This document shows positions 23,672 to 39,271 of a stretch of 64,000 bases of DNA, piece by piece (positions within the stretch are counted from its first letter, which is position 1; every line of letters begins with the position of its first letter). The notes beneath the pieces were generated by a model. That model had not been told where the DNA came from and made no database searches. It saw only the letters and a program-made list of their open reading frames with translations. Source of the DNA: an uncultured Planctomycetota bacterium (lineage in GTDB: Bacteria; Planctomycetota; Planctomycetia; Isosphaerales; Isosphaeraceae); NCBI GenBank assembly GCA_963823665.1, contig CAWGMQ010000005.1, positions 896,001 to 960,000 on the forward strand. Direction: 5' to 3'. Position numbers and translations under genes: made by a program.

Positions 23672-23869
23672 GTTACGGCCCCGCCAACCGGAGCCTTACG
23701 GCACCCCCCGGAAGCCTCCATAGCCGGGAGCGTTTGGGCGACGGTCACAGCGGCGGGTGAGAACGAAACGCCTCTGGCGGCCTCGGCGGCTTGCCGCCCT
23801 TAGGCCGACGGCGTTTCGCAACGGAAGCCGCTGCTTGACCGGCCCGGCGGAGGCTTCATGGTGCCGTTA
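23672..23869 (-). promoter_or_regulatory. Frpo-like single-stranded DNA promoter hairpin, copy 1
   Basis: Long imperfect IR; TTGACC-N16-CATGGT in right arm (23835-23862). Confidence 0.65.
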
Positions 23870-24509
23870 CATAGGCCACGGGCGGGGCTGGATCGAAGCC
23901 CGACGGAGCCATTGCATCGGACGCAGCAGCCGAAGAGACGGGACCACGTCCAATTGCGGCGGCTGCGGATTCGGCTTCACTCTGGCACGTATCGAGCCCG
24001 TAGAACCCCCAGCAGCTATCGACGGATTCGGAGTCCTCGCTGCCGCAACACGCACAGGCAGAGATTCGTTCGATCTGGTAGCCGTAAATGTCGCCGTTGC
24101 ACCACTGCGTATAGGCTTCGCACGCCTGGCGGGCGCGCTTGCGCATGAAGTGCAGGCGAGTGCGGCCGCCGTAGTTGCGGGCGGATTCCAGCGTTAGGGC
24201 GTTTGGGAGCCAGACCCCGGCGAAGCTGACCGAATCAAACCGGCAGCGGCACACGGCGGGCAATTCCCCGGCGACCGACCACAGGCACAGTCCGTGCTCG
24301 TAGTAGCTTAGCGGCACGGCGTCGGGGTTGGTGCTGATGGCCTCCTCGATGCCGGCAGGGTCAAAATTGCGATGCCGGCGGTTCAGGCTCAGGATCGCGC
24401 CCATTTCGTCCCAATCCTCCAAAGGATTGGCAGCGTCCGTATCGGCATAGATGCGGATGCGGTATGTCTGGCCGTCGCGTTCGACGGTTCTGGTTTCGAT
24501 GGCGTCCAT
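23856..24509 (-). CDS. Phage/plasmid-type hypothetical protein
   Basis: NP.EDWD, PLSYYEHG, Y.QWCNGDIYGY, DSCWGFYG. Confidence 0.7.
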   Translation of the reverse strand: MDAIETRTVERDGQTYRIRIYADTDAANPLEDWDEMGAILSLNRRHRNFDPAGIEEAISTNPDAVPLSYYEHGLCLWSVAGELPAVCRCRFDSVSFAGVWLPNALTLESARNYGGRTRLHFMRKRARQACEAYTQWCNGDIYGYQIERISACACCGSEDSESVDSCWGFYGLDTCQSEAESAAAAIGRGPVSSAAASDAMAPSGFDPAPPVAYVTAP

Positions 24510-24511
24510 GG

Positions 24512-36900: not shown

Positions 36901-39098
36901 GCCAGCGTGTCGTCCTGGTTCACCACCCTCTCCTCTCCGTTTGGACCCTGGATGGTGTCGTAAATCACCGGCGTCTTCATATTGAGGGCGAGGTCGAGCA
37001 GCCATGTTCCGTTAGCCCGCACCGTGCCGTAGTCGCTCGTCGCGGCGACTGACGCCTCGGCGGCGTGGCCGGCCTCGACGCTCCACACCGCATCCTTTTT
37101 CAGGTGACCGACCGTGATGTCGGACGCGGCGACGCCGAACAGTTCGGCGGCGAATGCCTGGATGTCGGAACCCGGTATCCACGGTGCGCCCAGATTAGCG
37201 TCGATATCGCCCGGCAGCACGTCTTCGGGCTGGACGTGGCGCAGCGCCTCGGCATTGCGGGCGTAAGCCGCGCCGGCCGCCTCGGCGAATTTGAGTTTGT
37301 CACGCACATTGCCGGACAAATATTGATCGGCGGTCTGCCACTGCCACGATTGCGGGTCGCGGTAAATCAGATCACCGAGCTCGGCGATGATGGCCTCCTC
37401 GGGCTTGCCATATAGTTGGCTGATATAGGCCAGGTCAACGCCGCCATTGCGGTCGAGGCTGACCAGCAGCCCATCCTCGGCGGATGTGACATGCGTGACC
37501 GGTGGGCTCTTGCCGACGACATCACGCATCAAGATGGGAGCTTTGGCGGCTTTGCCGGTGACCTCGTCGTAATCCTCCAACGCCATCACCAGCATTGCAT
37601 CGGGGTCTTCGCGGAACTTGACGATATTCGGCATGCGGCGGATGACCGTGCCGTCGGCGGTTTCGCTGAAGGTGGTTTTGTTGACCGGGCCGTAGGTGGC
37701 GGCTAAGCGGTCATAGGCGAAGTTCAGCTTGCGGCGCGCGTCGATGCGGTTAGCCTCCGGCCACCCCTCGTTCTGCGACCGCAGCACCTGGCGGGCGAGA
37801 TCCCGTAATCCCACCAGAGCGGCAAGCCGGCGGCCGGTCATCGTCCCATCGGACTTCAGCAGCGTGCCGCCGTACGTCACCGGGACGGCTCGGCCGTCTT
37901 CGATTTGACAGATGGTGCGGTCATCGGCGACGAAGAAGCTGCCCTCGGTGATGTGTTTCTCAGGCGGCGGCGCGATGAATGCCGGGGGAGGAGGATTGGG
38001 CATTTCGGCGGCGGACTGCGTCACCTCAAACTTCGGCAGCCGGTCGATGGCCTGCCTCAGTTGCTCCGCCAGGTCGCCGGTGCCGGTGACGCTGAATCCC
38101 TCGCCGCCATACAGCGTGTCCTTGCGGCTGAATTCACCGAGCACCATCTCCGGATGGCGCACGAAATAGCTGTTGATCGGGATGTCGGCCGCGGCCAGCT
38201 TCATGGTGACGGTGTGCAGCCACTGCGGATCAACGTGGTTGGGTTCCTGACCGGGGGCGCGTTTCTTCAGGAACAGGATGTCGGTGACGACGCGGGTGCC
38301 TTCATTCTTGAACGCATCGGACGGCAGGCGAATCGCTCCCAGGAAATCGGCCTGGCCGGCGAGCTGCTCGCGGACGCTGGCATTCTGCTTGTCGAGCGTG
38401 TAGTGGCTGGTGACCACGGCCAGCACCCCTCCAGGTTTCAGCGCATCGACAGATTTTGCTATGCAGAAATCATGCAGCGACAGTTTCCGGCCCTGGAATT
38501 CGAGCTTTACATCCGCGAAGGGGACGTTGCCGATCACGGCACCGATGGTGCCCTCCGGCAATTTTGTGTCACGGAATGACTCGATGCGGATATCGGCGGC
38601 CGGGTGCAGCGCGCGGGCGATGCGCCCGGAAGTCGCGTCGAGCTCGACGCCGATGAACCGCTGGCCAGCCGGTGCATTTGCCATAAAGTTCCCGGTGCCA
38701 CAACCGGGCTCGAGGATGGTCGTGTTGGCCGGGACGCCAAGCCGCGCCAATGCGTCGTGGATGGCGGCGATGACGGTGGGCGACGTGTAGAAAGCGGTGA
38801 AGGTGGTTCGCTTCGCTGAGTCATACTCCACAGGTGACAGCAGTGACTCGAGCTCCTTCCCGAGCGTCTCCCAACCGGCATCCTTGTAGCGGCCGGTAAC
38901 GGCATCGGGAAAGAGCGACAGGGCCACCGCCGCGAATCCACCGAAGCGGGCGAGCGTTTGCCGCTCGTCGGCGGTGGCGGGACGGTTCTCCCGCTCGATG
39001 GTTTGCAATGTGCGGATGGCGGAAATGACGACGCGCGCCTTGGCTTTGTCGCCGGAGGCGATGGTTGATGGTGCGGTTTGGGTGATGGTTTGTTCCAT
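33915..39098 (-). CDS. N6-adenine methyltransferase-SNF2 helicase fusion (DarB-like)
   Basis: AFYTS, ILEPGCGTGNF, VIGNVPF, HAVGAGKT, IDEAH, ATGTPISN, EQREGRILRQGN; start at 39098 with AGGAG RBS. Confidence 0.9.
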   Translation of the reverse strand: MEQTITQTAPSTIASGDKAKARVVISAIRTLQTIERENRPATADERQTLARFGGFAAVALSLFPDAVTGRYKDAGWETLGKELESLLSPVEYDSAKRTTFTAFYTSPTVIAAIHDALARLGVPANTTILEPGCGTGNFMANAPAGQRFIGVELDATSGRIARALHPAADIRIESFRDTKLPEGTIGAVIGNVPFADVKLEFQGRKLSLHDFCIAKSVDALKPGGVLAVVTSHYTLDKQNASVREQLAGQADFLGAIRLPSDAFKNEGTRVVTDILFLKKRAPGQEPNHVDPQWLHTVTMKLAAADIPINSYFVRHPEMVLGEFSRKDTLYGGEGFSVTGTGDLAEQLRQAIDRLPKFEVTQSAAEMPNPPPPAFIAPPPEKHITEGSFFVADDRTICQIEDGRAVPVTYGGTLLKSDGTMTGRRLAALVGLRDLARQVLRSQNEGWPEANRIDARRKLNFAYDRLAATYGPVNKTTFSETADGTVIRRMPNIVKFREDPDAMLVMALEDYDEVTGKAAKAPILMRDVVGKSPPVTHVTSAEDGLLVSLDRNGGVDLAYISQLYGKPEEAIIAELGDLIYRDPQSWQWQTADQYLSGNVRDKLKFAEAAGAAYARNAEALRHVQPEDVLPGDIDANLGAPWIPGSDIQAFAAELFGVAASDITVGHLKKDAVWSVEAGHAAEASVAATSDYGTVRANGTWLLDLALNMKTPVIYDTIQGPNGEERVVNQDDTLAAREKQKRIKERFKSWLFAEPERTERLVRLYNDTYNNLRPRLFDGSHLDFPGMNSGIRLNPHQQDAVWRGMSAGNTLLAHAVGAGKTYTMAATGMKMKHAGLLKKPVYVVPNHMLEQFAREFMQLYPNARLLVATKDDLAKDRRKLLTAKIAGGEWDGIVMTHSSFERIGMSRDYQEKFLKEQIGEYDQLLRDHAGNSTPRNIIKSIEKQKARREERLKELMAEGKKDDGLVFDELGVDHVFIDEAHYFKNLETPTKMDRVAGIQTGGSERAFDLYMKARYLGEQHPGLPARSHASAKAGHGVTFATGTPISNTMVEMYTMQRFLDPEGLRSRGIEHFDGWAATFGEVVDTMEISPDGASLRPRSRFAKFVNLPELGTMFRAFADVQTPEMLDLPRPKLEGGKPQVVACPMSEEQAALQTGLVARYERLRKEKVDPRVDNALAITTDGRKLALDARLLSATAIDHPDSKINAMARNVAEIWQKTAATRGTQMVFCDMGVNPTPWGYCVYDDFISKLTAAGIPAGQIAAVGEADSDAKKQSLFDRVRSGSVRVLIGSTQKMGTGTNVQKRLVALHHLDAPWKPAEVEQREGRILRQGNDNPIVAIYRYVTEGSFDAYMWQALETKARFISQVMTGDNAARRAEDIGGQELSYAEVKAIASGNPAVLTLAEADAELQRLAILAKNHSDEQYLARRALRELPDTIARLDKRQADLSADRATLVAHERDPVTIGNRACNGSDSLDILGAKLDALPDKARDFTRFPIGSYRGLGFGLALHQSGAAEVFLEGAVTRHGLLSRDHRGPRAVMNALERLADGYQGQSDATRQDLEIARTQLRDYQARIGRPFAHDAYLAELTDLRDQLKAGLSQATPPATGAEISVSELADRIKALRAGHTIEAAPERRTPRSAATAEEPVTARIRRRSEAMPAALPPVEPEPAATPVEAPIAAVATPARPAEPMPPVIHPFPELPAAPRRDPVYRQQVAGGRRQNDRQLSLF
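36002..36041. repeat. In-frame palindromic insert in helicase gene
   Basis: GGCCTGCCT...AGGCAGGCC IR with two internal hairpins and GGCC duplication. Confidence 0.7.
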
Positions 39099-39121
39099 GA
39101 TGCGATGTCCTTCTCCTGACG

Positions 39122-39271
39122 ATTGCGGCCCCGCGCATGGGGGCCTTACGCCGGAGCGATCAACCGCCGGTAAGCCGGAAGCGAGGCGGCCGTGCAAGCG
39201 GGCAATGGGGAGGGGGCCCCCGTTCCCGCTTGCAGGGTCCGGCGGCGGCGGTAGCGTAGCGGCGAAAGGCC
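39122..39271 (-). promoter_or_regulatory. Frpo-like single-stranded DNA promoter hairpin, copy 3
   Basis: Long imperfect IR; TTGCAG-N16-TAGCGT in right arm (39230-39257). Confidence 0.65.

Follow-up and report, generated by a model that had tools for sequence, protein, structure and literature searches.

The 64,000-nucleotide stretch of planctomycete DNA analysed here (the window; G000:C5:896001-960000 in contig placement, G000 denoting the genome of origin) carries three long hairpins on its plus strand. These hairpins are copies of a real, conserved, and strand-specific element, and they sit within an element of ~74 kb that encodes a MOBF relaxase and is integrated in a tRNA-Asp gene. Most likely, they constitute a new class of single-strand promoter that acts by a known mechanism, and they were found together with what is probably a new family of origins of transfer (oriT). 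Both the family and its host range appear to be new. A preliminary description of the sequence had read the hairpins as promoters resembling Frpo of the F plasmid, and this reading is supported by the covariation of the stem, the strand bias of folding, the promoter-type conservation of the 3′ arm, the placement of the hairpins, which share the strand of a predicted nick site and mostly follow it, and the presence of a YfjB/HerB homolog among the genes behind them.

Copy 1 (23677-23890, plus strand) begins 5.4 kb past the predicted nick, copy 2 (28089-28296, plus strand) 9.8 kb past it, and copy 3 (39127-39287, plus strand) 20.9 kb past it. They correspond to the hairpins previously placed at 23672-23869, 28083-28277, and 39122-39271, all of which fold far better than shuffled sequences. 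Folding with DNA parameters, which had been proposed as a check, gave -66.0, -66.9, and -61.0 kcal/mol for copies 1, 2, and 3, respectively (z = -5.0, -7.2, and -6.0), and for each copy none of 200 shuffles equaled the native value. The motifs quoted in the preliminary description were all located at their positions. These include the right-arm boxes with their 16-nt spacers, TTGACC-16-CATGGT in copy 1 (23835-23862; -35 at 23835-23840, -10 at 23857-23862), TTGACC-16-TAAGTT in copy 2 (28241-28268; -35 at 28241-28246, -10 at 28263-28268), and TTGCAG-16-TAGCGT in copy 3 (39230-39257; -35 at 39230-39235, -10 at 39252-39257). The arm pairings CGGTCAAGC:GCTTGACCG and ACCGACGC:GCGTCGGT are likewise present, as are the bubble at the -10 box and the compensatory swap in the apical stem between copies 1 and 2 (GGCCT:AGGCC vs. 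GAGCT:AGCTC). Each copy abuts an RBS (ribosome-binding site) complement and the start of a minus-strand open reading frame (ORF; 23652, 28064, and 39098). In correction of the earlier description, the duplex can extend further, to about 250 nt, through pairing of the leader with the 3′ flank. The leader said to be shared by the three copies fared less evenly. It has three matches in the window against none in 100 shuffles, but a version shorter by one base is not enriched across the genome (six matches vs. 10 for the reversed control), and thus the leader signal is one of clustering. A sliding 180-nt fold scan of the window placed copy 2 among the strongest plus-strand windows and copy 1 near the cut-off, and it did not list copy 3. 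The scan also returned strong-folding windows at 9000-9270, 10621-10800, and 14851-15030, which the family model does not match.

The element is widespread in the class Planctomycetia. An iterated DNA profile run over 28 relaxase neighbourhoods found hairpins in 23 of them, with 35 near-full-length matches that all lie on the relaxase-coding strand; one further match in these neighbourhoods is a partial reverse-strand duplicate. Forty distinct copies were aligned with MAFFT, and a covariance model was made from their core. The covariance-model search that the preliminary description had suggested matched 37 of 150 genomes of the class. In the 16.5-Mb genome G000, the model found exactly five copies, all next to its two full-length relaxase genes. 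In a phylum-wide sample, 2 of 150 genomes matched, both inside the class; with only 19 candidates per genome scored, the small number of matches is to be read as "not found" and not as absence. The class search returned 87 rows, from which one reverse-strand duplicate and 22 training copies were removed, leaving 64. Within 50 kb of a relaxase gene are 53 of these non-training matches, 50 on its coding strand and three opposite, while the remaining 11 have no listed relaxase nearby (these and the other cross-tallies of hairpin, relaxase, oriT-motif, and spacer counts were summed by hand). Across the family, mean column identity is 47% with compensatory changes, and orientation is fixed.

Read 5′ to 3′ on the folded strand, a copy starts with the complement of a start codon and RBS. 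A small hairpin in the leader comes next, then the lower and middle stems, separated by a bubble. Beyond these, a side hairpin bulges out of the 5′ arm, the upper stem contains the -35 box, and an apex that varies between copies leads into the 3′ arm. Conservation of the stem in homologs is evident among the 40 copies, in which 38 of 47 consensus pairs have changed on both sides. Paired cells make up 76.8% of the total, compared with 36-46% in slid controls (maximum 45.9%), and none of 500 shuffles reached these values. The leader hairpin, which competes with the pairing to the 3′ flank, also covaries (14 two-sided cells). The given strand outfolds its complement in 39 of 40 homologs, compared with 35 of 60 random stretches of the window. 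The complement folds too and is on average only 5.8 kcal/mol worse; a bias in 39 of 40 is what selection on one single strand predicts.

The 3′ arm carries the signature of a promoter. When spacers of 14-20 nt were allowed, the best box pair in this arm was spaced by 16 nt in 30 of 40 copies, whereas the best spacings on the gene-sense strand were scattered, with 16 nt in 4 of 40. The base at -11, which sigma-70 flips out to begin melting, is A in 39 of 40 copies and has an unpaired probability of 0.75. Positions -12 to -15, on the other hand, vary as compensating pairs (the -12 pair, for example, is A:T in 28 copies and C:G in 10). Since a 16-nt spacer is odd against the Escherichia coli optimum of 17, consensus-like sites were counted in genomes of the class. 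In 25 of them, TTGACN-n-TAWRAT occurs 213, 122, and 140 times for n = 16, 17, and 18, compared with 53, 80, and 86 times for the reversed controls. Consensus-like promoters of Planctomycetia thus appear to favour a 16-nt spacer over one of 17, and the promoter-like site upstream of the relaxase gene in the window is also spaced by 16 nt. A literature search found no paper on planctomycete promoter spacer preference. Counting seven bases from position -7 places the predicted leftward starts at the edge of the leader (near 23696-23699 for copy 1, 28106-28109 for copy 2, and 39146-39149 for copy 3), so that a 7-bp stem-loop would form the 5′ end of each mRNA, ahead of the RBS. The fold z-scores of this mRNA stem-loop are -0.6, -2.2, and -1.0 for copies 1, 2, and 3, and only copy 2 stands out. 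A query for RNA data at a single relative locus listed no run, a result that speaks neither for nor against transcription.

Support for the direction of transfer comes from a predicted oriT at 18186-18242 (plus strand), composed of a 13-bp near-palindrome (18186-18198), an inverted repeat (18206-18231), and 10 conserved nt; the nick would fall between 18241 and 18242, with the plus strand transferred. In nine close relatives, an inverted repeat and a stretch of fixed length ending in CTG lie ~100 nt upstream of the relaxase gene, and this motif has a single match in the window (18228-18242; 0.02 expected). The motif was aligned in 22 loci, and its repeat covaries. An inverted repeat 5′ of 8-10 conserved nt and linked to a MOBF relaxase, the arrangement of MOBF origins, is therefore present here. 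According to published work, an inverted repeat lies on the 5′ side of conjugative nick sites, and in the oriT of R388, which also belongs to the MOBF group (TrwC), the repeat is followed by 8 nt ending in GTCT before the cut (PMC4814116). The planctomycete motif resembles this oriT in its inverted repeat and short conserved stretch before the nick; in contrast to R388, it also has the upstream 13-bp palindrome and can lie up to 16 kb from the relaxase gene. No planctomycete oriT is given in the available portions of PMC4853378 or of bioRxiv 10.1101/2024.01.30.577996. A TGTC motif near some relaxase genes was considered as a possible nick site but given up after the fuller motif emerged further upstream.

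A profile built from the nine relatives found the same motif 1-16 kb upstream of the relaxase gene where hairpins precede that gene. In such hairpin-first elements, the motif shares the strand of the hairpins and usually lies 5′ of them, a prediction that the data were free to contradict. A search of 150 genomes with a strict oriT-like pattern returned 19 matches, spread over 16 genomes; the control returned none. A hairpin lies within 10 kb of 14 of these 19 matches, and all 19 hairpins so placed share the strand of the motif, 16 of them lying 0.6-7.6 kb 3′ of it. When only hairpins with neither element in the training set are considered, 12 of 13 lie 3′ of the motif. In addition, the three hairpins opposite to their nearest relaxase gene have a motif of their own 1.5 kb upstream on their strand. 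The position of the motif and this strand agreement make the plus strand the likely transferred strand and the likely template of the minus-strand genes. This arrangement resembles that in F, in which the transferred strand likewise serves as the template. The relaxase gene of the element would then enter first, an unusual layout; it "typically" enters last (PMC11541004). Two DarB-linked hairpins elsewhere (G000:C4:549134-549323 and G089:C36:359771-359930) are located just upstream of an oriT motif and would enter last. Another locus, G126:C1:1073748-1085586, contains an oriT-like motif and three hairpins with no relaxase gene nearby on the same strand, and may be mobilised in trans.

In the mechanism proposed, the promoter would exist only while the plus strand is single-stranded, as the 3′ arm with its boxes pairs to the 5′ arm. 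Once the relaxase had nicked the plus strand at 18241/18242, the relaxase gene would lead this strand into the recipient, and the three hairpins would follow at 5.4, 9.8, and 20.9 kb. Host RNA polymerase would use the 5′ arm of each hairpin as its template and continue leftward into the adjoining minus-strand genes. Transcripts would start at the leader, yielding an mRNA with the 7-bp stem-loop and a strong RBS, and establishment genes would be switched on upon arrival in the new cell. In the duplex, promoter boxes at the correct spacing are missing from the gene-sense strand, and synthesis of the second strand would therefore turn these genes off again. The same transcripts may also prime second-strand synthesis, as at Frpo.

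Experimental support for single-strand promoters is so far limited, in the literature consulted, to enterobacterial plasmids. The promoters of F and pESBL rebuild their -35 and -10 boxes by folding and give transient early expression from mapped starts (PMC9849209; PMC12672017). As with Frpo1 and Frpo2 (ssp1, class 1) of F and ssi1-3 of ColIb-P9/pESBL, the planctomycete hairpin is a long rod on the (here predicted) transferred strand, in this case a covarying stem-loop of single-stranded DNA, with fold-rebuilt boxes on its 3′ arm that read along the 5′ arm into the gene. It also heads leading-region operons, including one with a YfjB/HerB homolog, and Frpo2 of F folds comparably (z = -6.45). 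However, the covariance model run with filters off found nothing significant in 18 kb of the F or 18.5 kb of the pESBL leading region (best E about 0.1), and blastn gave no match of the hairpin to enterobacterial plasmids. The family therefore does not join, by sequence, Frpo/ssi class 1 or classes 2-3 of pESBL/F, and only its short RBS region resembles the leader of F ssb. In the absence of a model match to the F or pESBL promoters, the hairpins likely form a new class with a known mechanism. The planctomycete family differs from Frpo and ssi in its 16-nt spacer, in the side hairpin that bulges out of the template arm, and in a leader stem-loop conserved at the 5′ end; its relaxase gene, which has the same sense as the predicted transferred strand, would enter first. 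The RBS region of F ssb (L116:8600-8650) resembles several leaders of the family, such as that of L076, through either homology or convergence.

Other reported elements share parts of this organization. Class 2 (ssp2) and class 3 of pESBL/F are hairpins unrelated in sequence that precede anti-restriction and methyltransferase genes and follow the same logic (PMC12672017; PMC13478746); they are enterobacterial and have 5′ RACE (rapid amplification of cDNA ends) or deletion support, whereas the planctomycete family is predicted from sequence. Samuel et al. (2024; PMC11541004) likewise predicted fold-back promoters, the Frpo′ and Frpo* candidates, ahead of genes of the leading region. Their survey was restricted to cases with a known oriT no more than 3.5 kb from a relaxase gene or traM, and its main text does not mention planctomycetes; the thousands of Frpo-like candidates that it lists may bear on how new the present family is. 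EGeRS1 of pLS20 is a repeated structured region at the head of each establishment operon (PMC8708921), and its branched form of 420-750 bp differs, by description, from the planctomycete rod of 140-250 nt. Literature searches on planctomycete Frpo, oriT and leading regions, and relaxases of integrative and conjugative elements (ICEs) gave no description of these hairpins in the texts available.

Several observations weigh against the reading as single-strand promoters or against the transfer that it presupposes. The consensus structure was derived from the same sequences on which it was counted, and these sequences are related. RNAalifold, applied to the MAFFT alignment, recovered only the 5-pair leader hairpin and not the long stem, probably because variable bulges and apical loops defeat it; the consensus pairs were thus taken instead from averaged per-sequence DNA pairing probabilities. 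None of the three box pairs passes a strict 9-of-12 sigma-70 scan, their match to the E. coli consensus is weak, and the -12 base of copy 1 is C. Within G000 by itself, a 16-nt spacer is favoured only slightly (18, 15, and 12 sites for 16, 17, and 18 nt). As for the oriT, 10 nt separate the repeat from the predicted nick, compared with 8 in R388, and 3 of the 19 hairpins near a motif lie 0.9-3.2 kb 5′ of it, where they would enter last. The only element with the motif opposite to the relaxase gene, pK2D_1, thereby has the usual layout and has no match to the family, so "follows oriT" and "follows relaxase" are not separated. Lastly, VirB4 (PF03135) was not found in G000, which is 91.9% complete, other VirB4/TraU families not having been searched, and transfer of the element is thus putative and not established.

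It is unlikely, though worth weighing, that the hairpins mainly serve second-strand synthesis, as RNA-polymerase primer sites (ssi/sso-like) or roadblocks (like ssp2 of F), with expression secondary. The Frpo transcripts of F serve as primers for DNA synthesis, which ssp2 brings to a stall (bioRxiv 10.64898/2026.01.09.698686), and the three copies just 5′ of an oriT motif would offer a useful site on the DNA that enters last. Such a role does not account for the RBS complement and start codon with which nearly all copies begin, nor for the covarying leader hairpin, whose retention makes most sense in an mRNA, and the several copies of an element head separate operons. The boxes might instead be ordinary duplex promoters firing rightward, either antisense to the upstream operon or toward the relaxase gene, with the repeat acting as a cruciform or a protein site. 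The spacing preferred by the host is present on the plus strand of duplex DNA, and in many elements the relaxase gene lies 0.3-1 kb downstream in that direction. In the window, however, no database-matched plus-strand gene follows the boxes, and the relaxase gene of the element has its own promoter-like site. A cruciform, moreover, needs both strands to fold, yet one strand is favoured in 39 of 40 copies, and a duplex promoter leaves the bubble at A-11 unexplained. This explanation is accordingly very improbable.

Alternatively, the structure could operate at the RNA level, attenuating minus-strand transcripts that read through it or serving as their 5′ leader, in the manner of EGeRS1. Establishment operons of pLS20 are preceded by repeated structured regions (PMC8708921), and the complementary strand of the hairpins does fold with the modest average deficit of 5.8 kcal/mol noted above. 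Yet in 39 of 40 copies the strand of mRNA sense forms the weaker fold (with DNA parameters), no Rfam family matches, a terminator scan lists no site in the three hairpins, and the conservation has a promoter pattern on the non-coding strand, which together leave an RNA role highly doubtful. The presence of several copies per element with variable apical loops would suit selfish miniature repeats, of the kind of miniature inverted-repeat transposable elements or repetitive extragenic palindromes, that accumulate in the element. This idea is largely refuted by the occurrence of only five copies in 16.5 Mb, all by relaxase genes, and by the fixed orientation and the 47% mean column identity with compensatory changes.

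If correct, the presence of a sequence-unrelated family in a distant class, matched to the spacing of its host, would show that the single-strand promoter strategy is general. Taken together, hairpins and oriT motif would fix the direction of transfer of many planctomycete MOBF elements and mark the ORFs behind the hairpins as candidates for anti-defence or establishment functions; the oriT and the early promoters are also possible genetic tools for a phylum with few. A broader proposal can be put forward only tentatively: Planctomycetia may carry a class-wide single-stranded DNA expression cassette of their own, made up of a fold-back promoter with a 16-nt spacer, a 5′ mRNA stem-loop, and a strong RBS, along with an undescribed oriT family, on MOBF elements that have the relaxase gene first and no recognisable mating-pair system. 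Were this so, it would point to an undescribed apparatus for single-strand DNA transfer in Planctomycetota.

The genes behind the hairpins include leading-region types, namely the DarB-like and YfjB/HerB-like genes. The preliminary description had assigned DarB-like, PC4-like, and GP88 operons to the three copies. The DarB-like assignment holds for copy 3, which precedes a methyltransferase-helicase gene (33915-39098, minus strand) encoding 1727 aa from an ATG behind an RBS. Its product matches phrog_10089, "DarB-like antirestriction" (1497 bits), as well as the Pfam SNF2 and helicase families, with weak methyltransferase matches. The GP88 assignment holds for copy 1 with the qualification that this gene is second. 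The predicted operon (21555-23652, minus strand), whose co-transcription is deduced from gene spacing, opens with a 52-aa acidic ORF (23494-23652), followed by the gene for a GP88-domain protein (22368-23480; E = 9e-39) and small ORFs. The 52-aa product is very acidic, has no Pfam, NCBIfam, or PHROG match, and is a candidate DNA mimic. The PC4-like assignment was not confirmed, nor was an SSB identity. The predicted operon of copy 2 (23856-28064, minus strand) begins with the gene for a 91-aa protein of three strands and one helix (27789-28064), accompanied by small ORFs. This protein has no Pfam, NCBIfam, or PHROG match, and its Atlas neighbours are unnamed planctomycete clusters. The best Z for a single-sequence structure model of it (pLDDT 74.5) was 5.2, and none of the matches listed was a PC4-like chain.

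Also in the operon of copy 2 is a YfjB/HerB-like ParB protein, encoded here in two overlapping minus-strand frames (26268-26858 and 24952-26376; 24952-26858 overall), which reflects either a pseudogene or an assembly error. In the Singulisphaera plasmid pSINAC03, the intact copy is a single 620-aa ORF that is 27% identical to YfjB of F over 580 aa (E = 3e-41), and the piece in the window is 60% identical to it. YfjB/HerB of F is under Frpo2 and is made only in new recipients (PMC13370423).

The limits of the integrated element were set by a pair of 48-bp repeats of the 5′ part of tRNA-Asp, 74 kb apart, with the right attachment site at 53528-53575 (plus strand) and the left copy, which falls in the tRNA-Asp gene itself, at G000:C5:875503-875550. 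This target lies inside an array of at least 23 tRNA genes, which the insertion divides. An Rfam search of the window at the gathering score found 13 tRNAs only, with no match to the hairpins. Components of a self-transmissible ICE that are present comprise a tyrosine integrase (52386-53432, minus strand; Pfam and NCBIfam searches), the attachment repeats, the MOBF (TrwC-type) relaxase-helicase (18345-21092, plus strand; Pfam TrwC E = 6e-50, NCBIfam MobF above cut-off), and a coupling-protein-like ATPase (type IV coupling protein, T4CP; 45659-47140, plus strand; Pfam TraG-D_C and TrwB_AAD_bind, weak yet above cut-off). The promoter-like site upstream of the relaxase gene is TTGATT-16-TATGAT (18281-18308, plus strand). 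Around the coupling protein, a conserved plus-strand block (41661-52160) is mostly without family matches and is a candidate for an unrecognised transfer apparatus. The nearest named relaxases are those of a Paludisphaera plasmid (52.6%) and a Singulisphaera plasmid (44.5%), and pSINAC03 of Singulisphaera gave the only long DNA match to hairpin copy 2 among 72,556 plasmids searched; the host is thus a planctomycete, in agreement with the preliminary description. Relatives of the relaxase are present in 83 of 301 class genomes. A plasmidome preprint counted 29 chromosomal MOBF relaxases in 21 planctomycete chromosomes and describes these chromosomes as without a complete mating-pair system and conjugation within the phylum as unreported (10.1101/2024.01.22.576637).

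Further features of the window concern cargo and repeats. A 2472-aa repeat-rich ORF without a Pfam match lies outside the element (56564-63982). The cargo of the element includes two IS21-like transposase loci (5-1585 and 13440-15645), a TIR-domain gene (1962-3197), and a PIN-domain gene (5214-5762). A 233-nt direct repeat (11482-11714 and 12232-12464) has copies that are 88% identical and 750 nt apart.

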